Below are positions 12,981-45,650 of a DNA stretch of 64,000 nt, one piece after another. The notes under the pieces were generated by a model, which saw only the letters and a list, made by a program, of their open reading frames with translations, was not told where the DNA came from and made no database searches. Made by a program: the position numbers and the translations under genes. Source of the DNA: a virus (taxonomy: Duplodnaviria > Caudoviricetes). Position 1 is the first letter of the stretch; the number at the start of each line of letters is the position of its first letter. The stretch spans positions 25,636 to 89,635 of IMG/VR virus record IMGVR_UViG_2786546133_000001; one strand, given 5' to 3'.

Positions 12981-13313
12981 GTGATCTCTCTGCCCGTGCT
13001 CGCACTGCTCGGCTTCGCCGCCTACAGGGCGACTCAGCTCGTCGTGCATGACACGATCCTCGACCCCGCCCGGCAGGCGCTCGCCGCCTGGCACGTGAAG
13101 AAGCTCGACAGCCGCCCGCGCGCCTTCGTGATGAAGCTGATCAGCTGCGTCTACTGCGCCGGTTACTGGCTGTCGGGCGTGACGCTGCTCGTCTACCTGC
13201 TCGCCGCCGACGCATGGGGCGACGCCCCGTGGATCGTCCACGGGATCGAGTGGTTCGCCGTCGCCGGGGTGCAGGCCCTCCTCAACCGGCGCGACGACTC
13301 GTGGGACGTGTGA
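12981..13313 (+). CDS. DUF1360-like membrane protein with CxxC
   Basis: AAYRATQLVVHDTILDP...LISCVYCAGYW; hydrophobic segments; GGAGG RBS. Confidence 0.75.
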   Translation: MISLPVLALLGFAAYRATQLVVHDTILDPARQALAAWHVKKLDSRPRAFVMKLISCVYCAGYWLSGVTLLVYLLAADAWGDAPWIVHGIEWFAVAGVQALLNRRDDSWDV

Positions 13314-13316
13314 CCC

Positions 13317-15053
13317 GTGGTGCGCCGCGAACTCACCGCCGCCGCCTCCCGCTACACGAAGAAGATCGCCAGTAGCCGCGTCCGGAAGCCCGACTCGTCG
13401 TGGCAGGCCGAGGGCTGGTCGTTCTACGACGTCGTGCCCGAGGTGCGGTTCGCCGCGACCTGGGTCGGCGGCGCCATGTCCGGCGCGACGCTGTTCGCCG
13501 GGCGCCGCGGCGACGACGGCACGATCGAGCGTGCGCCCGACGACCACCCGGCGACCGAGATCGTCCGGCAGATCGCCGGCGGCCCCGACGGGCAGTCGGG
13601 CATGCTCGGCGACTTCGGCCCTCACCTCGTCGTCGCCGGCGAGGGCTGGATCGTCATTCGGCCCACCACCGACAAGGCGACCGGCGCCGTCACCGGCTAC
13701 GAGTGGCGCGTCCTGTCCACGTCCGAGGTGCAGCAGCAGAACGGCAAGCTGACCGTCGAACTCGACGGCGAGCCGGTCGACCTGCCCGCGTACGACGAGG
13801 ACAACCCCGACGAGTCCGCGCCGATAGCGATCCGCGTGTGGAAGCCGCACCCGCGCCGCCACATCGAGGCCGACAGCCCCGTCCGCTCCAGCCTCGTCCT
13901 GCTCGAAGAGCTCCAGCTGTTGAACGCCGCCGTCGCGGCGATCGCCCGGAGCCGGCTGACCGGCCGGGGCGTGCTGCTCGTGCCGAAGGGGACGCGCTTC
14001 CCGACGCCGCCCGGCGCGCGCAACGACGCCGAGGACGACGTGATCGACGTGTTCATGGAGGTCGCCGCGACGGCGATCCGTGAACCGGAGTCCGCCGCGG
14101 CGACCGTCCCGATCGTGCTGGAGGTCCCGGCCGAAGCGATCGGCTCTATCAAGTGGCTGACGTTCGAGTCCGACTTCGACGAACTCGCCCTCAGGTTGCG
14201 CGACGAGGCGATCCGCCGGTTCGCGACCGGCCTCGAAGTCCCGGCAGAGATCTTGTTGGGCCTGTCCGATTCGAACCACTGGAACAGCTGGCTGATCGCG
14301 GGTGAGGCGATCCGACTCGGCGTCGAACCGCGGCTCGCCGTCATCGCGTACGCCCTCACCACGCAGTGGCTGCGCCCGCTGCTCGAAGCCCAAGGCGTCG
14401 ACGACGCCGAGGACTGGCTCGTCTGGTACGACACGAGCGCTCTGAGGGCCTCCAGCAACCGCGCACAGACCGCGCTCGAAGCGTTCCAGCTCGGGCTGAT
14501 CTCCGGTGAGGCCGCCCGCCGCGAAACCGGGTTCACCGAGGACGACCGGCCTGGCGCCACCGACCCCAACGGCGCGCAGCAGCCCGCCGACACGACGCAG
14601 ACGGAGGAACCCAGCAACGTGACGACCCTGCCCGTGGCCGAGTCCCCCAGCATTCCCGACACCCTGCCCGCCTCCGCCGTGCCCGACCTGCCGGCCGAGA
14701 TCCTCGCCGCCGTCGACGGGCTGATCTGGAACGCCCTCTACGCGGCGGGGACCCGGCTGCGGAACCGGCCCGCTTGCCCCCGCTCCGAGCGTGCGCACGC
14801 CCGCAGCATCGTCCCCACCGACCTGCACACCACGTACGCCGTCGACGCCGAGCAGATCGACGAGTGGCGCCTCCTCGAAGGCGCGTGGGTCCGCGTGCCC
14901 GAGATCGCCGCCCGCTACGGCCTCGACCCCGACTGCCTCACGTCCGCGCTCGACGAGTACGCCCGCGCGCTGATCGCCGCCCGTACCCCGTTCACGTTCG
15001 ACGACGTGCCCCGGCTGCTGCGCATGTCCGCCTGCAAGGCAGACGCGGCATGA
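13317..15053 (+). CDS. Portal protein
   Basis: Position after terL, size, PEVRFAATW...VAGEGW...NHWNSW...EAARRETGF. Confidence 0.8.
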   Translation: MVRRELTAAASRYTKKIASSRVRKPDSSWQAEGWSFYDVVPEVRFAATWVGGAMSGATLFAGRRGDDGTIERAPDDHPATEIVRQIAGGPDGQSGMLGDFGPHLVVAGEGWIVIRPTTDKATGAVTGYEWRVLSTSEVQQQNGKLTVELDGEPVDLPAYDEDNPDESAPIAIRVWKPHPRRHIEADSPVRSSLVLLEELQLLNAAVAAIARSRLTGRGVLLVPKGTRFPTPPGARNDAEDDVIDVFMEVAATAIREPESAAATVPIVLEVPAEAIGSIKWLTFESDFDELALRLRDEAIRRFATGLEVPAEILLGLSDSNHWNSWLIAGEAIRLGVEPRLAVIAYALTTQWLRPLLEAQGVDDAEDWLVWYDTSALRASSNRAQTALEAFQLGLISGEAARRETGFTEDDRPGATDPNGAQQPADTTQTEEPSNVTTLPVAESPSIPDTLPASAVPDLPAEILAAVDGLIWNALYAAGTRLRNRPACPRSERAHARSIVPTDLHTTYAVDAEQIDEWRLLEGAWVRVPEIAARYGLDPDCLTSALDEYARALIAARTPFTFDDVPRLLRMSACKADAA

Positions 15054-15280
15054 CCGGCCCGCAGACGCCCGGCACGCCGCCCCAGCGCCCGCGTGCCGTC
15101 CTCGCACGCCTCGACGTCGGCAACCTCCGCGAAGACCTGTGGTGTGCCGACTGCAAGGCGCTGAGCGGCTTCGCCGTCGATGTGCTCGCCATGCACGACG
15201 GCGGCGTGACCGTCGTCGGCACCGTGACCGGCTGCTCGATCTGCATGGACGCCGACCCTCCGGGGGTGGGCCGTGGCTGA
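15050..15280 (+). CDS. Small Zn-ribbon protein
   Basis: ATGA coupling to portal; WCADC...GCSIC. Confidence 0.6.
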   Translation: MTGPQTPGTPPQRPRAVLARLDVGNLREDLWCADCKALSGFAVDVLAMHDGGVTVVGTVTGCSICMDADPPGVGRG

Positions 15281-18200
15281 CACCGTGGACCAGGCGCTCG
15301 CCGACGCCGAGCGCGACGTCGCCGACGAGGTGCGCGCCGTCCTCGACGAACTCGCCGACGACATCGCCGCCGGCCTGGCGGACGCGACCGAGATCGTCGC
15401 CGCCCGCTGGTCGCTGTCTCGCATCGCCGGCATGTGGAGCGCGAAGGTGCCCCGCATCATGCGCCGGCTGTTCCGCGTCGCCGAGACGGCCGGCGAGCAG
15501 GCCGCGAACGACGTCGACGCCACGTTGCCCGACACGTGGGACGGCCTGCCCGGCCGGTACGACCGCGGCGACCTCCCGGCGTCGCTCGGCGACTACGCCA
15601 CCAGCACAGAGCACCTGTTGCGCGCCGTCGGCGACCGGCTCACCGAAGCCGCGGTCGCCGCGCTCGCCGAGGGCCTCGACGCAGGCGAGGACACCGCCCA
15701 GCTCCGCGCCCGGCTGCGTGCCCTGTTCGCCGCCGACGGCGCCCAGCTCGGCGAGTCCCGCGAGGAGCTGATCGCCCGGACCGAAGCCGTGCGCGCGTGG
15801 AATGGGGCGACGCTCGCCGCCGCGCAGGACCTGACGGGCGCGGACCGGCCGCTCGTCAAGCAGTGGCGCACCCGCGGCGACACCCGCGTCCGCGACAGCC
15901 ACCGCAAGGTGGACGGCTTCGTGCGGCTGCTCGACGACCCGTTCACCGTCGGCGGCGTCGACATGCAGTACCCCGGCGACCCGGCCGCGCCCGCCGACCA
16001 GGTCTGCAACTGCCGCTGTGTCCTGCGATTGCAGCGCGCCGAAGCGTCGGCGTCCGCAGGAAGTCAGGCGGGCCTCGGAGACGAATCTTCGAATCAAGGG
16101 CAGGCGACTGCCGCGGCTGACGGGAGCCACCTCATGGGCGGCATGATCGCGCTCATCCCCACCCGCGAGGACGCCGAGCGTCTCGCCCTCGACGGCGGCG
16201 AGGCCGCCGACGAACTGCACTGCACGCTGATGTTCCTCGGCGACCAGGGCGGCGACTGGACCACCGACCAGCGAAACGAACTGATCGCTGGTATCCGCGC
16301 GCGCTTCGCCGCGCTGCCCGGCCCCATCGACGCCCGCCTGTTCGGCGTCAACCACTGGAACCCCGGCGAGAACGGCGTATGGGTGTGGGCGACCGGCGAC
16401 GACAGCCCCGCCTACCCGGCGCTGCCCGACGCCCGCGCGCTCGCCGTCGAGGCGCTGGAAGACACCCACGAGCGCCCCGAGGTGCCCGAGCAGCATTCGC
16501 CCTGGGTCGCCCACGTCACGGGCGCGTACGACGCCGGTACGTGGCCTCTCGACCCGATGTGCGAGCGCCTCGGCCCGGTCCGGTTCGACCGCGTCCGCGT
16601 CGCGTTCGGCGGCGAGCACACGGACATCCCGCTCGGCCCCGAGGAGGAGCCCATGCCCGATACCAGCGCCGCGGCGTACGAGCCGCCCGTCCGCACCTGG
16701 TCCACGCCCGACGGCACCGCCCTTGCCTACGAGAACCAGGAGACCGGCGACGGCCGCGTGTTCGCCGCCGGCTCCCTGTACTGGGACGGCGCCGGCCCGT
16801 GGCCGCTCCAGTACGCCGACGAGATGGGCATGGGCCACGACGGCGCCGAACTCGCGGGCGCGATCCAGGCCATGAACCGCAACGGCGACCGGCTGACCGG
16901 TAACGGCGTGCTGTACCTGACGCAGCAAGCCGGCTGGGAGGCGTCGACGCTGCTCGACCAGAAGGCGCCGCTCGGCGTGTCCGTCGACCTCGATGACGTC
17001 AGTGTCGAGCTCGTCGACAACACCGCCCCGGCCGACGGGCAGCCGGCCGACGGCGGCGACGGGGGCGACGGCGCGCCGGTCCTCGCGTCCGCGACATACG
17101 CCCGCGCCTCCGTGCTGCGGCTCGGCGACGACGGATGGGTGATCACCGCGAGCAGCGCGATCGAGACGACCGCCTCGGCCGCCGCCCTCACCCGCGCCGT
17201 GCAGACCGTGCAGGTCATCTCTGGGCCAGGCGGCCGCATCCCCGCCGACACGGCGCGCGCCCTGTTCCCCGGCGCGCTGACGGCCGCCGCCGGCGACGCC
17301 GACAACCCGGACGGCGGGGTCGTCGTCCACGCCGAGAACGCAGGCGACTACCTGGTCCGCATCACCCGCGCCCGTGTCCGCGGCGCGACGCTCGTCGCGA
17401 TGCCCGCCTACGACAAGGCGCGCATCGTCATCGACCCCGAGCAGGTCCCCGAGGGCGAGCCGACGCAGGCGCCCGCCGAGGACGTCGCTGCGGCGGCCGG
17501 CTCCGACCTCACGCGGGTCGTCGCGCACGTCTGCGGCGCCCCGACGCCGGTCAGCGCCCGCGACGTCGCCGCCGCGCTCGGCCTCACCCTGTCGACGACG
17601 AAGCGGCACCTGCGCGCCGCCGTCCGTGACGAGCGGATCGTCCGCCTCGGGCGCGGCCTGTACGCCGCCCCGTCGACGATCCCCGAAGGCGACGTGTCGG
17701 CCGCCGCGACCGACGACCAGGCGACCGGCGAGCAGCCCACCGGCCACAACAGCGACGACGGCGACCACGGCCACGGCCACGGCATGACCGAACTGGAGGC
17801 GTCCGCCTGGACCGCCATGCGCGCCGCGCCGCCGATGCCCGCCGCCTGGTTCCGCGAGCCCACCGAGGAGGAACTGCCGCCCGGCAGCGGCGGCGTGCAC
17901 TTCGCGGACGGCCGGATCTGGGGATGGGTCGCACAGGCCGGTGTCCCGCACGCCACGCACGGCCGGAAGGTCACGATCGAGAAGCTCGCCGCGAACGACG
18001 GGCTGGACCTGTCGCACTTCCTGCGCGCCCGGTTCACCCTCGACGACGGCAGCGAGGTCCGCGCCGGCGCCTTCACGATGAACGTCGGCCACCACCGCGA
18101 CGGCTACGAATGCGAGACGGCAGCCTGCCAGTTCGACGACTCGCGGACCGTCGCCGGGATCGTCACGGTCGGCATGAGCGAGGGCGGCCTGTGGTTCAGC

Positions 18201-18662
18201 GGCGCGGCGTCGCCGTGGCTCGGCGAGTGGGATCTGAACGTCTTCCGCTCGTGTCAGCCGAGCTACCACATGACGCAGGGGCCCGACGGCCGTTGGCAGC
18301 TCCGCGCGGTCCTGTCCGTGCCCGTGCCCGGCCACTCGTCGCCGCTGCTCGCGTCCGCCGTCGTCGAGCGGTCGAACCTCGCGCTGACGGCCGCCGCCGC
18401 CCTGGCCGACGTCGCCGAGCCGGCCGCGCCGGTCGACGAGCCTGAGCCCGAGCACGCGCGCGCCGACGACGCCTCGCCGGTCGTCGAGCAGCTCACGGCG
18501 GCATTCCTCACCCCGACGTTCCTCGACACCTTCGCCGCTGCACTGGAGGAGCGGCAGCAGCAGCGCGCCGAGGTGCGCGCAGAGGTCGAGGCACTCGCGG
18601 CCCTGGTCGAACCGGGCGCCGCGATCACCGCAAGCGCTGCACCGCAGCAGGAAGGACGCTGA
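15273..18662 (+). CDS. MuF-like minor head protein fused to 2H phosphoesterase, protease/scaffold-like region and wHTH
   Basis: KQWRTRGDTRVRDSH...YPGDP...NCRC (MuF); HCTL and HVTG 2H motifs; VSVDLDD and RVRGATLVAMPAY protease-like segments; SARDVAAALGL..TTKRHL HTH. Confidence 0.75.
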   Translation: MADTVDQALADAERDVADEVRAVLDELADDIAAGLADATEIVAARWSLSRIAGMWSAKVPRIMRRLFRVAETAGEQAANDVDATLPDTWDGLPGRYDRGDLPASLGDYATSTEHLLRAVGDRLTEAAVAALAEGLDAGEDTAQLRARLRALFAADGAQLGESREELIARTEAVRAWNGATLAAAQDLTGADRPLVKQWRTRGDTRVRDSHRKVDGFVRLLDDPFTVGGVDMQYPGDPAAPADQVCNCRCVLRLQRAEASASAGSQAGLGDESSNQGQATAAADGSHLMGGMIALIPTREDAERLALDGGEAADELHCTLMFLGDQGGDWTTDQRNELIAGIRARFAALPGPIDARLFGVNHWNPGENGVWVWATGDDSPAYPALPDARALAVEALEDTHERPEVPEQHSPWVAHVTGAYDAGTWPLDPMCERLGPVRFDRVRVAFGGEHTDIPLGPEEEPMPDTSAAAYEPPVRTWSTPDGTALAYENQETGDGRVFAAGSLYWDGAGPWPLQYADEMGMGHDGAELAGAIQAMNRNGDRLTGNGVLYLTQQAGWEASTLLDQKAPLGVSVDLDDVSVELVDNTAPADGQPADGGDGGDGAPVLASATYARASVLRLGDDGWVITASSAIETTASAAALTRAVQTVQVISGPGGRIPADTARALFPGALTAAAGDADNPDGGVVVHAENAGDYLVRITRARVRGATLVAMPAYDKARIVIDPEQVPEGEPTQAPAEDVAAAAGSDLTRVVAHVCGAPTPVSARDVAAALGLTLSTTKRHLRAAVRDERIVRLGRGLYAAPSTIPEGDVSAAATDDQATGEQPTGHNSDDGDHGHGHGMTELEASAWTAMRAAPPMPAAWFREPTEEELPPGSGGVHFADGRIWGWVAQAGVPHATHGRKVTIEKLAANDGLDLSHFLRARFTLDDGSEVRAGAFTMNVGHHRDGYECETAACQFDDSRTVAGIVTVGMSEGGLWFSGAASPWLGEWDLNVFRSCQPSYHMTQGPDGRWQLRAVLSVPVPGHSSPLLASAVVERSNLALTAAAALADVAEPAAPVDEPEPEHARADDASPVVEQLTAAFLTPTFLDTFAAALEERQQQRAEVRAEVEALAALVEPGAAITASAAPQQEGR

Positions 18663-19249: not shown

Positions 19250-20923
19250 ATGGCCGAGCCTTACGAGCTCCCCGAAGACATCACCAGCCTGAGCGCCGAG
19301 GACCTCGACGCCGAGATCACGCGAGCGACCGAGGTGTTCCAGGCCCGGCGCTCCGACCCGAGCCTGACCACCGCCGACCTTCCCGCCCTGCGCGAACTCG
19401 CGGCGGGCATTGAGGCCATGCGCGGCGAGCAGGCCGAGCGCGTCGAGCAGGCGCAGCAGGCACAGGCCGAACTCGACCAGCTCGCCGCGCAGGTGCTCGG
19501 CGAGGAGACGGCCGCCGAGGACGAGGGCGGCGAGGAGACGGCCGCCGAGGGCAGCGAGAACGCCGACGGCGGCGAGGGTGACGGCGGCGAGGGCGGGGAG
19601 GGCGGCGAAGTCGCCGCGGCAGCCACGCCGCGCCGTCCCGTGATCGCGCTGACCCAGGTCCGCGCCCGTCAGCCGCAGCAGGCGGTGCCGGTCGTGAAGG
19701 CCCCGTCGGTCGAGATCAAGGCGTCCGTCGACATGCCGGGGCTCGCGCCCGGCGAGGGCATCTCGATGGAGACCCTCACCGAGGGCATCATCCGCCGGGC
19801 CGGCGCGCTCGCGACGTCGGGCGGCGGCACTGGCATCGTCGCCTCGTACCGGCTGCCGTTCGACGACAAGAGCGGGCTCGTCGTCAACGACCCCGGCAAC
19901 GCCAACGAAGGACTGAACGCCGTCATCAAGGCGGCCGATCAGCGGCGCCTGCCGAAGGGTGACCTCGTCGCGAGCGGCGGATGGTGCGCGCCGTCCGAGA
20001 CCGTCTACGACATCACCGACATCGCGTGCCCCGACGGCCTGTGGGACCTGCCCGAGATCCAGCTCAGCCGCGGCGGCATCCGGTTCTTCCAGACCCCGAC
20101 GCTCGACGTCAACGCCATGACGTGGGTGTGGACCGAGGCGAACGACATCGCGGCCGGCTCGCCCGGCGGGCCGACGAAGCCCTGTTTCCGCATCCCCTGC
20201 CCGGACCCGATCGAGGTCCGCTGCGACGCGATCGGCGTCTGCCTTGAGGCGGGCATCCTGACGTCGCGCCACTTCCCGGAGCTGGTCAACTGGTACCAGC
20301 GGAACATCATGATCGCGCACGAGATGCGCATCCGCCGCGAGCTGTACGCCCGCGCCCGGACCGCGTCGACCGCCGTCACCGTGCCGGTCTCGTTCGCGTC
20401 GTTCTCCGCCGTCTACGGCGCCGTCGCCCTCCAGGCAACGGACATCATCGAGAAGCACAGCCTGTGTGAGCGCATCGGCCTCGAAGTCGTCTTCCCGTAC
20501 TGGGCCCGCGCGATGTTCCTCGCTGACATCGCCCGCCGCTCGGACACCGACGTCTGCGACCTCCCCGCGAACTGCATCGAGGACGCGTTCGCGACGCTCG
20601 GCGTCCGCGTGCAGTGGGCGAAGGGCCTGATCCCCGACGTCCCGACCAACATCGGCGGCACCAACCCGGCGACCACCTGGCCCGCCGACGTCGAGTTCCT
20701 GATCTACCCGACGGGCAACTTCCAGCTCGGGCGCGGCGCCGAGATCAACCTCGGCGTGATCCACGACTCGACCCGCCTCGCGACGAACGATTTCACGGCG
20801 CTCTTCGCCGAGGAATGCGTCGCGCTCGTCGACCGCGGTATCGAGTCGCGCGTCGTCACCGTGCCGGTCTGCGCCGACGGCTCGGTGGGCCCGCGGGCCA
20901 CGCCCGCATGCCCGATCGCCTGA
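19250..20923 (+). CDS. Major capsid protein with N-terminal scaffold-like domain
   Basis: Coiled-coil acidic N-terminus, LVASGGWCAPSETVYD motif, position. Confidence 0.85.
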   Translation: MAEPYELPEDITSLSAEDLDAEITRATEVFQARRSDPSLTTADLPALRELAAGIEAMRGEQAERVEQAQQAQAELDQLAAQVLGEETAAEDEGGEETAAEGSENADGGEGDGGEGGEGGEVAAAATPRRPVIALTQVRARQPQQAVPVVKAPSVEIKASVDMPGLAPGEGISMETLTEGIIRRAGALATSGGGTGIVASYRLPFDDKSGLVVNDPGNANEGLNAVIKAADQRRLPKGDLVASGGWCAPSETVYDITDIACPDGLWDLPEIQLSRGGIRFFQTPTLDVNAMTWVWTEANDIAAGSPGGPTKPCFRIPCPDPIEVRCDAIGVCLEAGILTSRHFPELVNWYQRNIMIAHEMRIRRELYARARTASTAVTVPVSFASFSAVYGAVALQATDIIEKHSLCERIGLEVVFPYWARAMFLADIARRSDTDVCDLPANCIEDAFATLGVRVQWAKGLIPDVPTNIGGTNPATTWPADVEFLIYPTGNFQLGRGAEINLGVIHDSTRLATNDFTALFAEECVALVDRGIESRVVTVPVCADGSVGPRATPACPIA

Positions 20924-20968: not shown

Positions 20969-20989
20969 CGCGGATAGGAGGTGTGGCAG

Positions 20990-21823: not shown

Positions 21824-22383
21824 ACACGATCCGCGTGCAGCCGGCCCCCAGGGTGCGCGTCGACTTCGCCCGGTGGGCGATCGCGCAGACCCCGCCGGTC
21901 CGTACGTGCTCACACGACGCGTTCGCTGTCCCGGCGGACCTGTTCACACACATGCCGGAAGACCTGCTCGTCGGCTCGCTCGTCGACGGCCACCGTTACC
22001 GCTCCCCACTCGAGGACGCGCTCGCCGCGTCCGTCGAGCGCGAGAGCGTGCCGGGCGAGCCGCTGCCACCCGTGCCCGACTCGGCGTACCCGCCCGGTGC
22101 GACGCCGCTCGCCGAACCGACCGGCGACGGCGACGGCCAGGCGCCGACGCCCGAAGAGGTCGCCGTCGCGGGCGGCGACGAGCAGACGGCGGCCGCGCCC
22201 GACGGCGGCGACGAGCAGGCGACCGCCGCTGCTGCTGACGGAGGGGACAGCAGCGCGACGGCAGACGGCGACGAGCCGTTCGGCGCCGGTCCCTGGTCCT
22301 GCGACGTCTGCCCGCGCGAGTTCGACACCCGTCGCGGCAGGGACACCCACCGTCGGCAGGCGCACACGGAGGAGGCCCGCTGA
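21814..22383 (+). CDS. Hypothetical protein with C-terminal C2H2 zinc finger
   Basis: WSCDVCPREFDTRRGRDTHRRQAH. Confidence 0.7.
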   Translation: MQLDTIRVQPAPRVRVDFARWAIAQTPPVRTCSHDAFAVPADLFTHMPEDLLVGSLVDGHRYRSPLEDALAASVERESVPGEPLPPVPDSAYPPGATPLAEPTGDGDGQAPTPEEVAVAGGDEQTAAAPDGGDEQATAAAADGGDSSATADGDEPFGAGPWSCDVCPREFDTRRGRDTHRRQAHTEEAR

Positions 22384-35069: not shown

Positions 35070-35156
35070 TCTGGAGATCACGGCAGCGCCCCGGCGCTGC
35101 TGCTCGCCGACTGGTTATGGGCCGGGCACCGTTCACGACTTCGTGAGGGTGCCCGG
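35067..35156 (+). promoter_or_regulatory. Late leader element 5: TAATCT, hairpin, ACTGGTTATGGGCCGGG, long SD-occluding hairpin
   Basis: Motif 35110-35126; CCGGGCACC/GGTGCCCGG and TCACG/CGTGA stems; GTG 35156. Confidence 0.78.
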
Positions 35157-38100
35157 TGACCACCCCAGCCGGCGACAGCGAGGATTTCGGGTCCGCTCGG
35201 ATCACGATCACGCTCGACGACAGCGGCGCCCTCCGCGACGCGCGCGACCTCGGGCAACGCATTCAGCAGGCCCTCGACAGGGCGACGCGCAACACCGGCG
35301 ACCAGATCCGCCGGAACATCGAGCGCGGCCTGCGGGCGGCGGCCGTTTCCGTTCGCGTCGAACCGGACACCTCCCGGTTCCGTACGCAGCTCGCCGCCGA
35401 CCTGCGCGGCCTGGACACTTCGATCAGGGTCACGGCGGATCCGCAGTTTTTCCGGACCCGGCTTCAGGCCGCACTTCGCAGCACGGGCGGCCTGACCGTC
35501 GACATCGGCGTCAACGAGGCACGGCTGCGGGCCCGGCTGAACCGGGTCACGCGGCGGATGACGGCGAACGTCACCCTGGCCCCGGACACGACCCGCTTTC
35601 AGGCGCGGGTCAACCGGGCACTGCGCGGGATCACGGCTCAAGTCCGCGTCGAACCGGACGTCGCTCGTTTCGCTGCTCGGCTGCGGTCGCAGTTGCGGGG
35701 GCTCGGGGCCGTCACCGTCCAGGCGCGGGCGGACGCCGCTCGTTTCCGGCGGCAGTTGGAGCGCGACCTGCGCGGGCTGCCGCCGATCAGCATCCGGGTA
35801 GACCCGGATCTGTCTCGGCTGAACGACGCGCTTCGCCGTCACAACGCGCCGACTGTGCGTGTGCCGGTCGACGTCGACCGCAACCGGCTGACCAGGGCTC
35901 TCGGCAGCCTGACGAGCAGTCTCGGCAGCATCGGCAAGCGGGCCGGGACCGCGCTCGGCGGGCTGCTCAAATTCGGGGCTATCGGCATCGCGGCGGCGAG
36001 CGCCGCGCAGAGCGTCGCCGGTCTCGTCGCCGCGCTCGCCCCGGCCGCCGGGATCATCGCCGCCTTCCCCGCAGCGGTCGCCGGCGTACAGATCTCGCTC
36101 CAGACCCTCAAGCTCGCCGTCCTGGGCGTCGGGGACGCCCTGAGCGCCGCGTTCTCCGGGGACGCGAAGGCGTTTCAGGAGGCGCTCGACAAGCTCGCTC
36201 CGGCGGCACAGAAGGCCGTCCTCGCCGTCAAGGCGCTCCAGCCCGAGCTGTCGAAGGTCCAGCAGTCCGTACAACAGGCGTTCTTCCGGCAGTTCTCGGG
36301 CGACGTCGGCGCGGCGATCAAGAACCTGCTGCCGTTGCGGACGCAGCTCGCCGGGCTGGCCGGGGAGTTCGGCAAGGCCGCCGACGAGGGTCTGAAGTTC
36401 GCCGCGTCTCAGCAGGCCGTCGCGCCGTTGCGGCAGATCATCCAGGGCACGACGCAGGCGGCGTCGGGGCTTCAAGCGGTCGTCGCGCCGCTCGCGAAGG
36501 GCTTCCTCGACGTCGCCGCGGCGGTGTCGAAGGCGTTCGGCTCGCAGGTCGGCGGCGCGATCGCTCAGGCCGGCGCGCAGTTCGGGACGTTCCTGTCGGA
36601 GTTCGCCGCGTCGGGCCGGGCGGTCGACGCCGTCCGGGGCGCGGTCGGTGTCTTTCAGCAGCTCGGCGCGATCGCGTCGAACGTCGGCGCGATCATCTCG
36701 GGCGTCTTCTCCGCCGCGTCCGGGGCGGGCGGCGGGCTGCTGAACAACCTCCAGACGATCACCGGCGCGTTCCGCGAGTTCGTCCAGTCCGCGCAGGGAC
36801 AGGAGGCGATCGGGAAGATCTTCGGCACGATCGGGACGATCGCCGCGCAGCTCGGGCCGATCCTGTCCGCGCTCGTCGGCCAGCTCGGGCAGATCGCGCC
36901 CGCGCTCGGCCCCGTCTTCTCGACCCTCGGCCCGGCGATCACGGGCCTGATCAACGCGCTCGGGCCCGCCCTGGCGGCGATCGCGCCGAGTCTCCAGACC
37001 GTCGCCGCCGCCCTCTCCGATGCCTTCGAGTCCATCGGCCCCAGCCTGGGCCCGCTCGGGCAGGCGATCGCCCAGGTCGTCACCGCACTGGCCCCGCTGC
37101 TGCCGCTCGCCGGGCAGCTCGTGTCGGTCCTGGCGACCGCCCTCGCGCCCGTTCTCTCGACACTCGCACAGGCGTTCCAGCCGATCATCCAGGCTGTCGT
37201 TGGCGCGCTCATGCCGATTCTGCCGCCGCTCGCCGACGCGTTCGTTCAGCTCGTCACCGCCCTGACGCCCCTCGCGACCGGCATCGGCCAGGCGATCGCA
37301 CAGGTCTTCCAGATCCTCGGCCCGGTCCTGACGCAGGTCGCGAACGTCATCGCTCAAGTCGCGGTCGCGCTGGTGCCACTGATCACCGCCCTCACGAACG
37401 CCCTGCTGCCGATCCTGCCGCCCATCGTCCAAGCCTTCTCGGCGATCTTGCAGGCGATCGTTCCGATCCTGCCGCCGGTCGCGCAGCTCGTCGCCGCCCT
37501 GGCCCCGCTGCTGGTGACGATCACGAACCTGCTCGCCCCCGTGCTCCAGATCGCTGCGGCGTTCGTGTCGTGGACGGCGATCAACATCGTCGTGCCGGTC
37601 ATTCAGGCCGTCGTCGGCATCCTGACCGGCCTGTTGACCGCTTTGTCATCTGTCGTCACGTTCATCACGAATCTGCCGTCGCTGATCGTGGCGGGCCTGT
37701 CGGCCCTCGGCTCCCTGATCTCGACCGCTTTCACCGCAGTCGTCACGTTCTTCCAGGGTCTTCCGGGGATGATCCTGGCCGCGTTGCAGGCGCTGCCGGG
37801 GCTGCTGAGCAACCTCTTCCATCTGGCGCTTCAGGCCGTGGGCACGGTCATCGGTACCGGTATCGGCCTGGTGATCCTGCTGTTCACCCGCGTGCCGGGG
37901 CTGATCGGCAACGCGCTCGTCTCGCTCGGCTCGCTGCTGGTCAGCCTGTTCACGTCGGCGTTGAACGCGGGCAAGTCGGCGGTGTCCGCCGGGATCTCGG
38001 CGACCGTCTCGTTCTTCTCGCAGCTGCCGGGCCGCGCGGTGTCGGTCCTCTCGTCCCTGCCGGGCCGGGCGGCGTCGGTGCTGCGCTCGGCGGGTTCGGC

Positions 38101-39454
38101 CATGCTCGGCGCCGCCAGGTCGGCCGGCTCGCAGCTCACCTCGTTCTTCTCGGGCCTGCCGGGGAAGATCAAGGGCGCGCTGTCGGGGGCCGGGTCGGCG
38201 CTCGTGTCCGTGGGCCGCGACCTGATCCGAGGCCTGATCGCCGGTGTCAAGGCGATGGCGGGGTCCATCGCGTCGGCCGCGAAGGAAGTCGTCGGCTCGG
38301 CGATCAAGGCCGCGAAGAACGTCCTGAAGATCGGCTCGCCGTCGAAGGTGTTCATCGCGATCGGTAAGGACACCGGCAAGGGCTTCGTCATCGGCCTGAC
38401 CAGCAGCGCGGCGGAGATCAAGCAGACCACCGACAAGATCGCCGCCGACATCCGGAACGCCTTCAAGGGCAAGAACACCAAGCTCGACGACCGGCTGTTG
38501 AAGCTGATCTCGGACGGCAACAAGAAGCTGACGTCGCTCGCAACCCAGCGAGACGCGATCGCGAAGCGGATCGCCGACGCGCAGAAGTTCGCGGCGGACA
38601 CGGCCGCCTCCGCCTTGCAGGGGTTCTCGCTTCAGAACCTCACGCAGGGCGGCGTGAGCCTGTTCAACATCACCGAGGGCCTCGACCAGGGAATCGCGCA
38701 GGTCAAGAACTTCACGAAGGAGATCAACGACCTCGCGAAGCGCGGCCTGCGCAAGGACTTGCTGTCTCAGATCATCGGGCTCGGGCCGCAACAGGGCGCC
38801 CAGCTCGCCGAGTTCCTGTCGAACCAGTCGACGGCGAGCCTGAAGCAGATCAACAGCTTGCAGAAGCAGCTCGTCGCCGCGACGAACTCGCTCGGCAAGA
38901 GCGCGGCCGACGACTTGTTCGACGCGGGCAAGCAGGCGTCGCGGGGCTTCCTCGCCGGTCTCAAGGCGCAGGAAAAGGACATCGACGCCCTCATGCTGTC
39001 GATCGCGAAGTCGATGCAGAAGGCGATCCGTTCCGCGCTCGGCATCCACTCGCCGTCGGTCGTGTTCCGGAAGATCGGCGACCAGACCGGGCACGGCTTG
39101 CAGCTCGGCATCCTCGACCGGCTCGCCGCGCTGCGGGAGTCGACACGCAAGGCAGCCCAGGTCGTCGCGCTCGCCGCGACGAAGCCGCTCGCCGGTCTCG
39201 GCTCGCTCGTCGCCGCGCCCGTGGTCACGCCGACGCTCGCCGGCGGCGGGGGCACGGTGCCGCTGACCCGGTCGAGCAGCGCCGCGGCGGGCGTCGACGC
39301 GGGAAGCGTCGCCGACCTGATCCGCGGCGTGCGCCGGGCGAGCACGGGCAGCGCGGCGGGAGTCACGAACAACTTCACCGTTCAGGCGGCACAGGACCCC
39401 GAGAAGACCGCGCGGCTCGTCCTGCGCCGTCTGGCACAGGCGGGGATCGCGTGA
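35156..39454 (+). CDS. Tape measure protein
   Basis: 1432 aa, Ala/Leu/Gly-rich amphipathic repeats, IGSPSKVF and IHSPSVVF motifs. Confidence 0.9.
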   Translation: MTTPAGDSEDFGSARITITLDDSGALRDARDLGQRIQQALDRATRNTGDQIRRNIERGLRAAAVSVRVEPDTSRFRTQLAADLRGLDTSIRVTADPQFFRTRLQAALRSTGGLTVDIGVNEARLRARLNRVTRRMTANVTLAPDTTRFQARVNRALRGITAQVRVEPDVARFAARLRSQLRGLGAVTVQARADAARFRRQLERDLRGLPPISIRVDPDLSRLNDALRRHNAPTVRVPVDVDRNRLTRALGSLTSSLGSIGKRAGTALGGLLKFGAIGIAAASAAQSVAGLVAALAPAAGIIAAFPAAVAGVQISLQTLKLAVLGVGDALSAAFSGDAKAFQEALDKLAPAAQKAVLAVKALQPELSKVQQSVQQAFFRQFSGDVGAAIKNLLPLRTQLAGLAGEFGKAADEGLKFAASQQAVAPLRQIIQGTTQAASGLQAVVAPLAKGFLDVAAAVSKAFGSQVGGAIAQAGAQFGTFLSEFAASGRAVDAVRGAVGVFQQLGAIASNVGAIISGVFSAASGAGGGLLNNLQTITGAFREFVQSAQGQEAIGKIFGTIGTIAAQLGPILSALVGQLGQIAPALGPVFSTLGPAITGLINALGPALAAIAPSLQTVAAALSDAFESIGPSLGPLGQAIAQVVTALAPLLPLAGQLVSVLATALAPVLSTLAQAFQPIIQAVVGALMPILPPLADAFVQLVTALTPLATGIGQAIAQVFQILGPVLTQVANVIAQVAVALVPLITALTNALLPILPPIVQAFSAILQAIVPILPPVAQLVAALAPLLVTITNLLAPVLQIAAAFVSWTAINIVVPVIQAVVGILTGLLTALSSVVTFITNLPSLIVAGLSALGSLISTAFTAVVTFFQGLPGMILAALQALPGLLSNLFHLALQAVGTVIGTGIGLVILLFTRVPGLIGNALVSLGSLLVSLFTSALNAGKSAVSAGISATVSFFSQLPGRAVSVLSSLPGRAASVLRSAGSAMLGAARSAGSQLTSFFSGLPGKIKGALSGAGSALVSVGRDLIRGLIAGVKAMAGSIASAAKEVVGSAIKAAKNVLKIGSPSKVFIAIGKDTGKGFVIGLTSSAAEIKQTTDKIAADIRNAFKGKNTKLDDRLLKLISDGNKKLTSLATQRDAIAKRIADAQKFAADTAASALQGFSLQNLTQGGVSLFNITEGLDQGIAQVKNFTKEINDLAKRGLRKDLLSQIIGLGPQQGAQLAEFLSNQSTASLKQINSLQKQLVAATNSLGKSAADDLFDAGKQASRGFLAGLKAQEKDIDALMLSIAKSMQKAIRSALGIHSPSVVFRKIGDQTGHGLQLGILDRLAALRESTRKAAQVVALAATKPLAGLGSLVAAPVVTPTLAGGGGTVPLTRSSSAAAGVDAGSVADLIRGVRRASTGSAAGVTNNFTVQAAQDPEKTARLVLRRLAQAGIA

Positions 39455-39493: not shown

Positions 39494-40828
39494 TTGTTGA
39501 CTGACTACATCTCCGTCGGAGGTGTCGAGATCGCGAACACGGCCCGTCTGCGTGAGTACCTGCGGACCGTGGGCTCGCCGCTCGACAGCGGGTCGGACAT
39601 CTGCGCCTGCGACACGTTCACGGCCGCCGTCCTCGGCGACGAGCCGTACACGACGCCGGACGACGCGGCGTCGCCGGCACCGTGGTACGACCCGAGCGAT
39701 CCGGCGTCGGCGGAGTTCGCCGGGTTCCTCGTCCTGTCCATGGACGGCGTCGATGACTTCCCCGTGAAGCGCACGGTGACGACGTCGGTCACGGGCGGCG
39801 GCTCGCTCGGACCGGCGCGCGTGCAGCCGCGTGACATCACCGTCTCGGGGATCCTGCTCGGGTCGACGTGCTGCGGCGTCGAGTTCGGGCTGCGCTATCT
39901 GGCGGCTGCGCTCCAGGGCTGCACGGGCTCGCAGTGCGGCGGCGACTGCGTCACGATGTACGACTGCTGTCCGGGCGAGGACATGACGGCCGCCGAGTTC
40001 AACGCCGCGCACCGCCGCACCTACCGGCGGGTGGCGTTGACGGACGGGCCGAAGGTGACCGGCCGGGCGGGAACGGGCTCGTGCGGCGGCGGACGCTGCT
40101 CGATCGGCGCCGACGTCGTCACCGTCGAGTTCACCCTGACCGCGGCGACGCCGTGGGCGTACACGGACGAGGTGCCGCTGCTGACGGTGGGCATCCCGAC
40201 CGACGACGACGGCGAGTGCGTCGAGTGGTGCATCCACGACAGCCGGCTTCCCGACTGGGTGCCGCAGTGCGGCGGCTGCCGCCTGGCGGACTGTGTGGAC
40301 TCGCAGGACGCGTGCGCGGATCCGACGTGTGTGCCGCCCGCCCCGCCGGTCCCGACGGCGCCCGAGACGTGCTTCTGTGCGTCCCTGGCGACGAGCCAGG
40401 AGTGTTACGAGGTCGACCTGTCGAACCGGTCCGGGTGGATCGACGACGTGCCGATCATCAATGTGTACGCGGGCAGCGAGGACCTGCGCCGGGTGTCTAT
40501 CAGCCTGTATCAGCGGACCGAGGCCGACGAGAACCTGACGTGTGCCGAGCTCGCCGAGAAGAAGCGTTGCGAGCCCTACGCGCGGTGGGAGATCGGTTTC
40601 GTCCCGGCGGGCGGCGAGCTGCTGCTCGACGGGCAGACGAGCAGGGCCACGCTGGATTGCAACCGGCAGTGCTCGTCGGCGACGTCGGTCTACGGCCGCA
40701 ACGGCTCGCCGCCGACCTGGCCCGTGCTGAACTGCGCCGCGTTCTGCCTGTGCATCGAATCGGACGCGTTCGTGCCGCCCGCCCCGGACGCGACGGTGTC
40801 CCTGTCGGTGTCGGGTAGGGCGTCCTGA
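39494..40828 (+). CDS. Distal tail (Dit-like) minor tail protein, very Cys-rich
   Basis: Follows tape measure; PRDITVSG, VEFTLTAATPW; about 28 Cys. Confidence 0.7.
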   Translation: MLTDYISVGGVEIANTARLREYLRTVGSPLDSGSDICACDTFTAAVLGDEPYTTPDDAASPAPWYDPSDPASAEFAGFLVLSMDGVDDFPVKRTVTTSVTGGGSLGPARVQPRDITVSGILLGSTCCGVEFGLRYLAAALQGCTGSQCGGDCVTMYDCCPGEDMTAAEFNAAHRRTYRRVALTDGPKVTGRAGTGSCGGGRCSIGADVVTVEFTLTAATPWAYTDEVPLLTVGIPTDDDGECVEWCIHDSRLPDWVPQCGGCRLADCVDSQDACADPTCVPPAPPVPTAPETCFCASLATSQECYEVDLSNRSGWIDDVPIINVYAGSEDLRRVSISLYQRTEADENLTCAELAEKKRCEPYARWEIGFVPAGGELLLDGQTSRATLDCNRQCSSATSVYGRNGSPPTWPVLNCAAFCLCIESDAFVPPAPDATVSLSVSGRAS

Positions 40829-41856
40829 TGGCCGGCCTGGGGTGCGCCGCGGAGTACACGGCCGTCGTCGCGGACCGTGACGGCGCGATCCTGTCCAACC
40901 TCGTCACCGTGACTCATGTCGAGTTCACGCGCGTGCTGAACGACGCGAGCACGGCCCGTGTCGTCGTCGTCCCCGACCTCGACTGTTGCGAGAAGCTCGG
41001 CGACGTCCGCTCGTGGCGGAACTGGCTGCACATCTACCGGAACGGCGACTACGTGTGGGGCGGGCCGATCCTGACGGCGGAATGGAGCCTCGGGCAGTTC
41101 GAGATCAACGCGGGCGACGTCATCTCGGTTCTCAACCGGCGTACGCCGCACGAGTCGAAGGCGTTCACGAACACGGACCTGACGGACATCGCGACGTGGC
41201 TGATCGAGGACGGTTTCCTTCCCGACGACCCCGGTCATACGGTGAACGTCCTCGCCCCGTCCGGGGTGTCTGGCTCACGCGAGTACACCGAGGACATCGG
41301 GCAGACCGGCGACCACCTGAAAGACCTCGCGGACACCGGCCTCGACTTCACCGCCGTCGGTAACTCGATCCTGCTGCTCCCCGACGACTGGAGCGCGAGC
41401 GTGGGCCTGCTGACGGACGCCGACCTTCCCGACGGCCTGAGCGTCGCCGAGGACGGGACGGCGCTCGCCACGCGGTGGATCGTCTACGGCAGCGACGACA
41501 GCGGCGTGAAGGGCGTCGCCGGCGGCGTCCACCCGTATTACGGGCTGATCGAGCGGAGCATCCAAGACACCTCGATCAAGGACAACGACTCTGCGACCGC
41601 GGCGGCGCAGTCGCGGCTGAACGCCTCTCTGCCCGTGCCGGTCTACATCGACACGCAAGAGGTCACGCTGTCGCCGGACGCGGGGGTCGACGTCACGCGG
41701 ATCGTGCCGGGCTGGTGCATCGACCTCGCAACGACGACGACGTGCCGGAACGTCTCGCAGCGTATGAAGATCACGGGTCTGCACGTGACGGCCGACGGCG
41801 ACGGCGAGTCGGTACAGGTCCAGCTCGGGCCCGTCAGCGCGGAAGGCGATGCGTAA
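40828..41856 (+). CDS. Minor tail/baseplate hub protein
   Basis: FTRVLNDAS...LHIYRNGDYVWGGPI. Confidence 0.7.
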   Translation: MAGLGCAAEYTAVVADRDGAILSNLVTVTHVEFTRVLNDASTARVVVVPDLDCCEKLGDVRSWRNWLHIYRNGDYVWGGPILTAEWSLGQFEINAGDVISVLNRRTPHESKAFTNTDLTDIATWLIEDGFLPDDPGHTVNVLAPSGVSGSREYTEDIGQTGDHLKDLADTGLDFTAVGNSILLLPDDWSASVGLLTDADLPDGLSVAEDGTALATRWIVYGSDDSGVKGVAGGVHPYYGLIERSIQDTSIKDNDSATAAAQSRLNASLPVPVYIDTQEVTLSPDAGVDVTRIVPGWCIDLATTTTCRNVSQRMKITGLHVTADGDGESVQVQLGPVSAEGDA

Positions 41857-43637: not shown

Positions 43638-43698
43638 TAGACTGAGCGGTAGCCGCTGGTTCTGGGCCGGGCACGAGCGCACCCCGAGAGGTGGTCGT
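43638..43698 (+). promoter_or_regulatory. Late leader element 7: TAGACT + GCTGGTTCTGGGCCGGG + SD hairpin
   Basis: Motif 43655-43671; ACGA/CACC pair with GGTG/TCGT; TTG 43700. Confidence 0.78.
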
Positions 43699-43699
43699 C

Positions 43700-44539
43700 T
43701 TGGCCAGGTGTCAGTGCGGCGGCGGCGGCTGCAACTGCGTGGTACAGGCGGGCGATAACGCCATCGTCACAGGCGGCGGGTCGACGGCGAACCCGTACGT
43801 CGTGACCGCTGTCACGAACTGCGACGAGGTCCGCGGCTGTCTGTCCGCCGGTCCGGGAATCGCCTTCGACCCGGCGACCGGCGTGATCGGCGCGGACGTG
43901 TCGAGCACGCCCGGGAACAACCTGGTCATCGACGCGAACGGCCTGTACGTGCCGACGGGCGCGGCGACCGTCCAGACCGGATGCGGGCTGCGCGGCGACG
44001 GGTCGGCGAGCGCGCCCCTGCGCGCCAACACCGCGACGTGGCCGTTCTCGTGCGACATCACCTCCAACGGCGGCGACGTCTACTGCGACCCGTCGTCGGG
44101 CCAGCTGATGACCGACCCGCCGTTCAAGGCCCGGTACCGCGAGGTGAACCTCGGCGACTCGTTCGCCGCTCGCGCGGTGCCCGCCAACGAAACGACGATC
44201 GACACGATCAGCGTCGCCCTGACCAACCCGGACCCGTGCCGGGACGCGTTCGTGATCGTGCACCGCGCCCTCGACGTCGACTTCAACCTCCCGGCCGACG
44301 GCGGGCAGGCCATGTCGGGGATCAACGGCGACGATCTGAACTACCTGAAGAATACGGGCAGCACGGCCATTACGGCCTGGCACGGGCAGCACAACGTGAT
44401 GCACAACAGCGTCATCGCGGCCGGTGCGACCCAGGCAATCAACCTGGCGATCACGCTCGGCCGGGGCGGCGGCGGCGCGACGTACACCCGCTTCCAAGCC
44501 ACGATCCGGGTGTGGCTGTTCTCCATCCCTCTGAGCTGA
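43700..44539 (+). CDS. Minor tail/fibre protein (paralog 1)
   Basis: MARCQCGGGGCNC; GSTANPYVV; TNPDPCR. Confidence 0.7.
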   Translation: MARCQCGGGGCNCVVQAGDNAIVTGGGSTANPYVVTAVTNCDEVRGCLSAGPGIAFDPATGVIGADVSSTPGNNLVIDANGLYVPTGAATVQTGCGLRGDGSASAPLRANTATWPFSCDITSNGGDVYCDPSSGQLMTDPPFKARYREVNLGDSFAARAVPANETTIDTISVALTNPDPCRDAFVIVHRALDVDFNLPADGGQAMSGINGDDLNYLKNTGSTAITAWHGQHNVMHNSVIAAGATQAINLAITLGRGGGGATYTRFQATIRVWLFSIPLS

Positions 44540-44859: not shown

Positions 44860-44896
44860 CCAGGGCGGAGGCCCCAAAGGGCGCCGCTTCGCCTCA

Positions 44897-44954
44897 TACA
44901 CTGTCATCGCTGCTGGTTCTGGGCCGGGCTATGGACTCCACTCCTTCGGAGGGG
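44897..44954 (+). promoter_or_regulatory. Late leader element 8: TACACT + GCTGGTTCTGGGCCGGG + SD hairpin
   Basis: Motif 44912-44928; CTCC pairs with GGAG; ATG 44958. Confidence 0.78.
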
Positions 44955-44957
44955 CTC

Positions 44958-45650
44958 ATGGCAAGCTGCAAGTGCGGCGGCGGACAATGCAGTTGCGTCG
45001 TCATCGCCGGGCCCGGCGCGACCGTCACGGGTGCCGGTTCGACGGCCAACCCGTACGTGGTCGGCGCGGACCCGAACGTCACCGCCGGCTGCGGCATCAC
45101 GGGCGACGGGTCGGCGGCGAACCCTCTCACGGCGAACACCCAGACGTGGCCGTTCACGTGCGACATCGGCGCGAACGGCGGCGGCGTGTACTGCGACCCG
45201 GCAACGGGCGAGCTGCACACCGATCCCCCGGTCTGGGGGGAGTTCGAGGGGAACCAGCAGACCACGGCCCTGTCGACGCCCCTCCCCGTGCCTACGTCGG
45301 CGTCGCAGGTGATCGACACGATTTCGATCACTGTCACGAACCCGGACCCGTGCCGCCGCGCGCTCGGCTTCCTGTTCCGCGAGGTCGACCTCGACTTCAC
45401 GCTGCCGCCGAACTCGGGCGCCATGGCCAGTATCGACGGCGACGACATGAACTATCTCGGCAACCAGGGAAGCGGGACGATCTTCGCCACCCACTCCCAG
45501 GACAACAAGATCACCGTGCTCACCCTCAACCCTGGGGAGACGCGCACGATCACGATGAACGTCGAGGCCGGTCGAGGCAGCGGCGGAGCGACGATCACCC
45601 GCATCCAGAAGTCCCTTCGGGCGTGGTTCTGGACGCCCCAGTTCAACTGA
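44958..45650 (+). CDS. Minor tail/fibre protein (paralog 2)
   Basis: MASCKCGGGQCSC; highly similar to 43700-44539. Confidence 0.7.
   Translation: MASCKCGGGQCSCVVIAGPGATVTGAGSTANPYVVGADPNVTAGCGITGDGSAANPLTANTQTWPFTCDIGANGGGVYCDPATGELHTDPPVWGEFEGNQQTTALSTPLPVPTSASQVIDTISITVTNPDPCRRALGFLFREVDLDFTLPPNSGAMASIDGDDMNYLGNQGSGTIFATHSQDNKITVLTLNPGETRTITMNVEAGRGSGGATITRIQKSLRAWFWTPQFN

Follow-up and report, generated by a model that had tools for sequence, protein, structure and literature searches.

The DNA considered here is a 64,000-nucleotide stretch, called the window below, that comprises bases 25636-89635 of an 89,635-base provirus in IMG/VR (record IMGVR_UViG_2786546133_000001; 69-73% G+C). It represents the structural half of a temperate siphophage, integrated as a provirus in Streptomyces, with an integrase gene at the extreme left of that provirus. 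Two features of the late region are the subject of this analysis: the abundance of cysteine (Cys) in the proteins on the exterior of the particle, and a small DUF1360 membrane protein with a CxxC motif that is encoded at the head of the late operon. PHROG and Pfam scans reveal a siphophage late region of the standard type on the plus strand, on which the genes from DUF1360 to the fibres lie. The genes run in the order DUF1360, portal, MuF-protease, hexamer capsid protein, phrog_779 protein, two giant phrog_18824 proteins, tail tube, adaptor, a 194-amino-acid (aa) protein, chaperone-like genes, tape measure, the proteins in the Dit and Tal positions, fibres and a GH25 endolysin. This gene order is common to Xkcd426, Abt2graduatex2, KLucky39, Rosebush, Zagie, EMoore, Pam4 and Jollymon, and the nearest named phages are Streptomyces Woodruffviruses (52-60% identity). 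The PHROG families of the portal, hexamer capsid, pentamer-like, tube and adaptor proteins assign the phage to the lineage of actinophages with two separate capsid proteins, a hexon and a penton protein. The capsid family is found in 877 records of the phage collection, among them 496 from Mycobacterium, 198 from Gordonia, 131 from Microbacterium, 18 from Arthrobacter and 17 from Streptomyces.

The first gene of the head operon (12981..13313; 110 aa) had been described in the initial annotation as that of a DUF1360-like membrane protein with CVYC at the start of a helix, and this description proved correct. The protein matches Pfam PF07098 (35.1 bits; cut-off 21) and phrog_781 (E 8.6e-28), the motif is C56-V-Y-C59, and C56 and C59 are its only two Cys. 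In a six-frame search with PF07098 the window's gene scored 30.7 bits, and Bacillus subtilis gave a match among the controls. The DUF1360 gene ends 4 bases before the start of the portal gene (13317..15053; 578 aa; phrog_776, E 3e-175), whose product has 3 Cys, all after residue 486. Next comes a fusion of a MuF-like protein and the capsid maturation protease (15273..18662; 1129 aa; Pfam Phage_Mu_F and phrog_859), annotated likewise in Xkcd426 and Abt2graduatex2. The major capsid hexamer protein (19250..20923; 557 aa, 12 Cys; phrog_777, E 5.5e-162) is related to the KLucky39 protein annotated as 'major capsid hexamer' (BLASTP E 9e-53). The major capsid pentamer, or penton, protein (20981..21823; 280 aa, 14 Cys; phrog_779) has as its homologue gp13 of KLucky39, annotated 'major capsid pentamer protein' among the cluster B mycobacteriophages (BLASTP E 3e-8). 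The two capsid genes adjoin in the window, as expected of the two-capsid-protein lineage. Between the penton and tube genes lie two giant genes of phrog_18824, a family without known function: a large Cys-rich protein to which no role is assigned (22383..24740, with a start perhaps at 22506; 785 aa, 41 Cys; E 3e-210) and its paralogue (24737..28231; 1164 aa, 43 Cys; E 6e-270, in 6 stretches). The two giants have in common a domain of about 250 aa with 10 Cys at spacings of 6, 13, 15, 29, 13, 47, 15 and 45. Related genes are present in Xkcd426 and absent from Abt2graduatex2 and the mycobacteriophages compared.

The tail and connector genes follow. The major tail (tube) protein (31619..32293; 224 aa, 10 Cys) matches phrog_792 (E 1.7e-91), and the head-to-tail adaptor (32390..33196; 268 aa, 17 Cys) matches phrog_783 (E 1e-87); read from an alternative start at 32318 the adaptor would have 292 aa and still 17 Cys. 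It carries the motif C-x-C-x3-C-x-C-x3-C, and eleven of its columns are Cys in 73/73 sequences. The 194-aa protein encoded at 33209..33793 (16 Cys) is, by its modelled fold and its position, a tail terminator like lambda gpU. Its AlphaFold2 model (predicted local distance difference test score, pLDDT, 88.1) was matched by Foldseek to the terminators of 7-7-1, T5 (p142), Mu and lambda (gpU) with E values of 2.7e-5 to 4e-4, probability 1.00 and template modelling (TM) scores of 0.41-0.59, and its gene lies directly after the adaptor gene, a position that matches ORF79 of the Mycobacterium abscessus phage Jabs. The tape measure (35156..39454; 1432 aa; phrog_305 and others) is followed by a distal tail (Dit-like) minor tail protein (39494..40828; 444 aa, 28 Cys; phrog_838), whose homologues bear the annotation minor tail protein and likewise follow the tape measure immediately, and by a minor tail protein in the Tal position (40828..41856; 342 aa, 5 Cys; phrog_837, E 7.5e-74). 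Two fibre-like paralogues (43691..44539, 282 aa, 10 Cys; 44931..45650, 239 aa, 8 Cys) share an N-terminal C-x-C-x4-C-x-C cluster; the true start of the second is probably a Met nine codons downstream. Searches of the PDB by sequence with the terminator, adaptor, tube and capsid proteins found no relative, and an NCBIfam scan of ten virion proteins gave no match.

The distribution of Cys among these proteins is sharply uneven. The gene list used for the census consisted of the calls made on the 89.6-kilobase (kb) provirus by a gene caller based on G+C content at third codon positions (GC3). Pooled, the ten Cys-rich virion proteins have 189 Cys in 4,354 aa (4.34%), as against 238 in 21,031 aa (1.13%) for the other 104 called provirus genes (Fisher p ~1e-39), and a single structural protein reaches 8% (the tail terminator, 16/194 = 8.2%). 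At the background of 1.13% the tape measure would be expected to have about 16 Cys in its 1432 aa; it has none. The MuF-protease fusion has 9 in 1129 aa (0.8%). Within the hexamer capsid protein all 12 Cys fall in residues 246-557, the last of them at 554, and the scaffold-like part (residues 1-245) is Cys-free, as are residues 1-486 of the portal. Translation of the plus-strand genes reproduced the Cys counts of the initial annotation to within a few residues of protein length, including those for the tube (10/224), adaptor (about 17/268), terminator-like (about 16/194) and Dit-like (about 28/444) proteins, the 14 Cys of what it called the "20990 protein" (given as 277 aa and here 280), the C-terminal confinement of the 12 capsid Cys, and the lack of Cys in the tape measure, the capsid scaffold part and the portal core.

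Cys richness is a trait of the lineage and is weaker in distant relatives. Xkcd426 and Abt2graduatex2 have 10 Cys in the tube, 15 in the adaptor, 12 in the protein at the terminator position, 24-26 in Dit, 10 in the penton protein, 8 in the capsid protein and none in the tape measure. In the order capsid, penton, tube, adaptor, terminator and Dit, the counts are 6, 2, 4, 5, 6 and 14 for KLucky39 and 8, 2, 4, 7, 4 and 15 for Rosebush. For the first five of these proteins they are 2, 4, 4, 10 and 10 in Zagie, 2, 2, 4, 5 and 3 in EMoore, and 4, 4, 4, 11 and 12 in the cyanophage Pam4, three phages with no entry for Dit. Summed over these five core proteins, the counts come to 69 for the window and 55 for the Woodruffviruses, with 16-35 for the others.

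The structural precedent for reading these Cys as disulfides comes from Jabs itself. A cryo-electron microscopy (cryo-EM) study of this phage (bioRxiv 10.64898/2026.07.24.740622) describes about 1,700 disulfides distributed across the capsid, connector, tail and tip. The T=9 capsid, of a type without cement proteins, is built from a 594-aa hexon protein (MCPh) and a 257-aa penton protein (MCPp). The bonds reported include C281-C563 within MCPh, C271-C347 between hexons and MCPp C97-MCPh C271 between penton and hexon. Successive rings of the tube are joined by C60-C79 and C131-C19, the terminator is bonded to the tube (C93 to tube C79) and the tube to Dit (tube C19 to C100). Dit has several further bonds within and between its subunits, and fibre proteins are bonded to an insertion in Dit. 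Whether the bonds form spontaneously or are catalysed by a host or phage oxidoreductase 'remains an open question' in the words of the authors.

The window resembles Jabs in its gene arrangement, with adjoining hexon and penton genes followed by tube, adaptor and terminator genes in the same order. It also resembles Jabs in keeping, apart from tube C79, conserved Cys of the inter-capsomer, inter-ring, terminator-tube and tube-Dit bonds, the window being known from sequence and Jabs by cryo-EM. Residue numbers were related through KLucky39. Its capsid Cys 262, 272, 338 and 554 correspond to Jabs MCPh 271, 281, 347 and 563, a constant 9 lower at all four; its tube Cys 20, 61, 80 and 132 correspond to 19, 60, 79 and 131, a constant 1 higher; and Cys 99 of its penton protein is 2 higher than MCPp C97. 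On this numbering, the columns of Jabs C271, C347, penton C97 and tube C19, C60 and C131 hold Cys in 8/8 aligned phages, the window's residues being capsid C246 and C317, penton C93, and tube C20, C61 and C130. The capsids of Zagie and EMoore have just the two Cys of the C271 and C347 columns. Beyond this common core the two phages differ: the Cys count of the five core proteins is 2-3 times higher in the window's clade (69 in the window as against 23 in the Jabs-like KLucky39), the window has added the two giants with 41 and 43 Cys, and its phage is integrated in Streptomyces, unlike Jabs of M. abscessus.

The way in which Cys come and go among close relatives points in the same direction. 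Homologues were taken from an IMG/VR scan anchored on the tube gene, and the best 80 of 553 relatives were used, a sample that is biased to the window's clade. The number of Cys is even in 73 of 74 unique tube homologues (8, 10 or 12; one has 9), in 72 of 73 terminator homologues (12, 14, 16 or 18) and in all 15 capsid homologues (8, 10 or 12). Particular columns also gain and lose Cys together. Tube columns 3 and 218 agree in 74/75 sequences, and column 25 agrees with a Cys in the C-terminal extension in 75/75; in the terminator the pairs 41/120 and 185/187 each agree in 74/74. The adaptor has the pairs 18/188, 107/148 and 159/166, and Dit has 279/293, 304/420 and one pair inside an insertion. 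The presence pattern of each of these ten pairs is shared by only 0-2 of the 730-1762 non-Cys patterns in the respective alignment, so that the coupling is specific and does not simply reflect clade structure. When the tube tree was built with the paired columns left out, 3-4 branches showed a change in the 3/218 pair, and 3-4 in the pair of 25 with the C-terminal extension. Such changes in twos, often of residues 80-200 positions apart, are what disulfides predict; four-ligand metal sites do not predict them.

Taken with the Jabs structure, these comparisons make a disulfide-stapled virion a well supported reading of the window, though no longer a new one. The initial annotation had proposed a shell that is disulfide- or metal-stapled, and for disulfides this proposal now has strong support from the Jabs lineage, the universally kept Cys, the parity and the ten paired columns. 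We put the probability of the best overall explanation, a disulfide network among the outer proteins that closes late, presumably without a dedicated catalyst, at about 0.55. According to this explanation, the proteins on the exterior of the particle (both capsid proteins, adaptor, terminator, tube, Dit hub and fibres) carry many paired Cys, whose bonds within and between subunits would join the capsid, connector, tail and tip covalently into a single body. Few Cys or none are found in the proteins that leave the particle, act transiently or end up enclosed in it (the N-terminal part of the capsid protein, the protease, the chaperones and the tape measure). The bonds would most likely close late, in assembled particles with pre-positioned thiols, under the oxidizing conditions that prevail at or after lysis.

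Several observations weigh against this explanation or limit it. The equivalence of window and Jabs residues was drawn through KLucky39 by residue-number offsets and not by alignment of the Jabs sequence. The counts, homologies, parity and paired gains and losses belong to the sequences compared here, and the bonds themselves have been seen only in the relative Jabs; uncatalysed oxidation, like the timing of closure, is something that we infer. Only three of the four Jabs inter-ring tube Cys are kept in the window, the C79 column being Phe in the window and in 64/75 members of its clade, and seven other tube Cys have been gained in that clade, so that the network must be partly rewired, in at least one bond. 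Parity does not extend to all the proteins: 14 of 45 Dit homologues have odd counts (31 even), as do 7 of 25 penton homologues (18 even), and the adaptor counts, with sequences trimmed to the shorter start, are mostly odd (15, 17 or 19 in 65/72). Sign tests on the individual pairs fall short of significance, there being too few independent contrasts. The capsid and penton pairs (325/523, 436/442, 52/75, 80/266, 129/211, 154/270 and 177/178) coincide with clade splits, 3-26 non-Cys patterns sharing them, and are weak evidence if taken alone. Finally, the four-Cys sets of the terminator (C18, C20, C36 and C38) and of the adaptor (C-x-C-x3-C-x-C) are gained and lost as units and could be either zinc sites or disulfides.

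Virion-wide covalent disulfide networks have been described only recently, in Milano in 2023-24 and in Jabs in 2026. In the Agrobacterium phage Milano, disulfides run across capsid, neck and tail and dithiothreitol (DTT) destabilizes the particles; the network has been proposed to restrain contraction of the sheath (PMC10491603, PMC10811340). The window resembles Milano in the virion-wide extent of the network, as predicted from sequence; Milano is unrelated to it and, unlike it, has a contractile tail and a Gram-negative host. In the cyanophage Pam3, Cys at the N termini of the trimeric fibres form disulfides with baseplate patches that are rich in Cys, and treatment with DTT frees the fibres (PMC9942802). 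The window, with Cys clusters at its fibre N termini and 28 Cys in Dit, recalls this arrangement, by analogy only, for Pam3 is a myophage with different proteins. Nine IMG/VR homologues of the fibres align from query residue 4 or earlier; the full four-Cys cluster is present in 7 and C-x-C alone in 2, and three fibre genes of Xkcd426 and Abt2graduatex2 start with M-A-R-C-x-C...C-x-C. By analogy with Jabs and Pam3, the C-x-C...C-x-C clusters probably anchor the fibres covalently to the Dit hub. The Streptomyces branch of the Jabs lineage has taken the disulfide strategy further than Jabs, of which it is the more extreme relative, and the sequence comparisons provide a list of predicted bonded pairs.

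How such a network is formed in a cell with a reducing cytoplasm is a question that bears directly on the DUF1360 protein. Its AlphaFold2 model (pLDDT 97.3) has helices at residues 4-22, 25-39, 45-55, 57-75 and 84-107, three of them of membrane length; C56 is placed at the N-cap, and the CxxC motif in the first turn, of helix 57-75, the second membrane helix. A profile search of 1.84 billion representative sequences gave 1,375 relatives, and conservation was judged from the best 150. Of the 142 sequences aligned over the motif, 140 retain both Cys, the commonest versions being CPYC, CPFC, CPWC and CPHC, and 89/150 have exactly two Cys. The motif is followed by G-x-W (G61 in 130/150 and W63 in 130/150), and R16, D24 and R31 are more than 90% conserved. 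Averaged over 123 sequences, Lys plus Arg residues number 5.5 in the loop that precedes the CxxC, 0.24 in the short loop following the helix and 1.35 in the C-terminal tail. By the positive-inside rule, the motif therefore probably faces the cytoplasm, in which virions assemble.

A DUF1360-like gene is present in 8/8 named relatives, directly upstream of the portal gene in 7 of the 8 and two genes away in Pam4. The Pfam model matches with E<0.001 in 6 of the 7 relatives scanned, and the Zagie copy (CFWC) is recognizable only by eye. Among the IMG/VR loci with the gene in range, it lies directly upstream of the portal in 4 of 7. Comparison by tblastn of three DUF1360 family members with the capsid family gave 17/17 for Streptomyces, 182+20/198 for Gordonia and 440/496 for Mycobacterium, and DUF1360 was found in at least 685 of the 877 capsid-family records. 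In the rearranged relative L077 (15496-18816) the gene lies between a Tal-like gene and the fibre genes, about 12 kb from the portal, so that DUF1360 goes with the structural module rather than with the portal itself; in this same relative the penton gene comes after the fibres and not after the hexon gene.

These properties could be explained if the same disulfide network had a dedicated enzyme, with DUF1360 as a membrane thiol-disulfide oxidoreductase that acts late in infection, in the reducing cytoplasm or at its edge. Such a protein may oxidize virion thiols, or proofread and isomerize them, and possibly pass electrons to a membrane quinone. The near-invariant CxxC at a helix N-cap with a predicted cytoplasmic face, the conserved charged residues R16, D24 and R31, and the retention of the gene in the structural module throughout the lineage, including L077, are all consistent with this idea. 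In addition, the thioredoxin, glutaredoxin, DsbA and Erv families of Pfam had no match in the 25 + 89 provirus proteins scanned (about 10 short open reading frames (ORFs) were left out), and catalysis is left open in the Jabs report (bioRxiv 10.64898/2026.07.24.740622). The co-occurrence that the initial annotation had proposed as a check gives limited help, however. DUF1360 does accompany these capsids throughout the lineage, but this counts as one evolutionary event and not as a correlation, and there is no dose relation, the gene being present with 2 capsid Cys in Zagie and EMoore and with 12 in the window. Nor was an independent phage lineage with DUF1360 found in which co-occurrence could be tested, because the distant representative P0253 matched nothing in the genome contigs and, in the phage collection, only the same actinophage lineage (352 records, actinobacterial hosts).

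The initial annotation had compared DUF1360 to DsbB and VKOR, which are likewise small membrane proteins made entirely of helices and have a CxxC where a membrane helix ends. The topology, in contrast, fits weakly: DsbB and VKOR have a four-helix core, a second essential Cys pair and an active site on the outer face, unlike DUF1360 with its one pair, three membrane-length helices in the model and a CxxC predicted to face the cytoplasm. DUF1360 is the sole Pfam match of the protein at E <=0.01, with no likeness to DsbB, VKOR or Erv, and fold searches gave no convincing neighbour, only the noise expected of helical proteins (the top Foldseek match had E 1.8 and VKOR, at rank 41, E 6.2; VIA best Z 6.3). 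Virus-encoded, cytoplasmic-side formation of structural disulfides has a precedent in the poxvirus proteins E10R, A2.5L and G4L, a route headed by a membrane-associated CxxC protein, and giant viruses also carry Erv oxidases. These enzymes of poxviruses and giant viruses are of the Erv/ALR type and bind flavin adenine dinucleotide (FAD), whereas DUF1360 has neither an Erv/ALR family match nor a recognizable cofactor site. The SPbeta prophage of B. subtilis encodes thiol-disulfide oxidoreductases of the thioredoxin and DsbB families, BdbA and BdbB; unlike the role proposed for DUF1360, theirs is to serve the secreted peptide sublancin outside the membrane and not the virion. The B. subtilis member of the DUF1360 family may be the sporulation gene yjcA, which PMC3533761 lists with no mention of the family.

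Two further findings count against a catalytic role of DUF1360. Milano has its disulfides and no PF07098 match in its genome, although the same model also misses the divergent copy of Zagie. In another siphophage, Cys engineered into the tube protein gave inter-ring disulfides in purified tail tubes (PMC13576161). A lone CxxC could, moreover, equally well bind a metal in a dimer. We therefore regard the oxidoreductase as a doubtful alternative to late, uncatalysed closure, and a catalytic role of DUF1360 in forming virion disulfides as a lead, neither shown nor refuted, that the sequences make possible but improbable. The literature found on the function of DUF1360 consists of two passing mentions, one of them to the membrane protein gp7 of B1 mycobacteriophages, and includes no phage-encoded catalyst of virion disulfides. 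The further step, that DUF1360 would be the first such catalyst, with a new fold, and a core gene of this lineage and of many Streptomyces prophages, is unlikely on present sequence evidence. If catalysis by DUF1360 is nonetheless true, it would answer the question left open by the Jabs authors; if DUF1360 is irrelevant, this would support self-templated oxidation, which is useful for the design of stable phage particles and protein nanotubes. The protein is small, its CxxC is nearly invariant, and its gene is part of the structural module in hundreds of actinophages that are easy to handle, so that the existence of a phage's own disulfide catalyst is testable.

DUF1360 might instead have no redox function and act as a membrane helper of morphogenesis, for example in portal or prohead initiation, or as a lysis or exclusion protein carried in the late operon. 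T4 gp40, a membrane-bound helper of portal assembly, is a precedent. The tight abutment on the portal gene in the window, and the upstream position in most named relatives and IMG/VR loci noted above, fit such a role, as do the conserved charged residues, which lie in a predicted 33-residue cytoplasmic loop. Against it, the L077 copy is far from the portal among fibre genes, the CxxC is left unexplained as the most conserved feature of the family, and the likely holins, judged by position alone, are encoded after the endolysin at 47058-47665. We consider a non-redox function of this kind very unlikely.

It is likewise very unlikely that a large share of the Cys bind metal (zinc or iron-sulfur), with the C-x-C, CC and C-x3-C clusters of the adaptor, terminator, Dit and fibres acting as metal staples. 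The motifs themselves are suggestive, C-x-C-x3-C-x-C-x3-C in the adaptor and C18-x-C20...C36-x-C38 in the terminator, and the four terminator Cys are present together in 5/8 phages and absent together in 3/8, as would be expected of a four-ligand site. In the Jabs structure, the cluster-bearing segment of the adaptor (residues 68-102) is not resolved; the bonds that are seen are disulfides (bioRxiv 10.64898/2026.07.24.740622). The variable Cys change in twos and not in threes or fours, His is scarce (1-2 residues in tube and terminator), and no metal-binding Pfam family was matched. Compositional bias can be rejected as the cause of the Cys richness, because the adjoining genes for the Cys-free tape measure and the Cys-rich Dit (6.3% Cys) have the same GC3 (0.92 and 0.93).

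Some minor observations concern Cys-rich proteins elsewhere in these genomes. A protein of Abt2graduatex2 annotated as a DNA helicase (L002 44800-46635) has 29 Cys in 611 aa, so that high Cys content is not confined to virion proteins in this group. Two early-region ORFs of the window, 1319-1540 and 5502-5789, have 7/73 and 8/95 Cys and no Pfam match; they probably encode small metal-binding proteins outside the virion set. Just upstream of Dit, the Woodruffviruses have small ORFs, possibly genes, with 11/124 Cys (L002 20479-20853) and 4/79 Cys (L001 27331-27570), with CC and C-x3-C motifs.

Others concern gene arrangement. The tape measure gene is upstream of the DUF1360-portal block in the Woodruffviruses (L001 4325-7600, L002 4210-7257), in L077 and in L081, and in the usual place, after the chaperone genes, in the window (35156-39454) and in L062. 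The interval of about 1 kb between the small post-terminase gene and DUF1360 (11982-12980) contains neither a tRNA nor a sigma-70-like promoter, and none of its ORFs has coding-like GC3. Beyond the lysis genes on the right, a block at 50081-55201 encodes a histidine-kinase-like ATPase, two DUF6415 proteins, a radical SAM protein with 10 Cys and a DUF6302 protein, and may be provirus cargo or a defence-type island.

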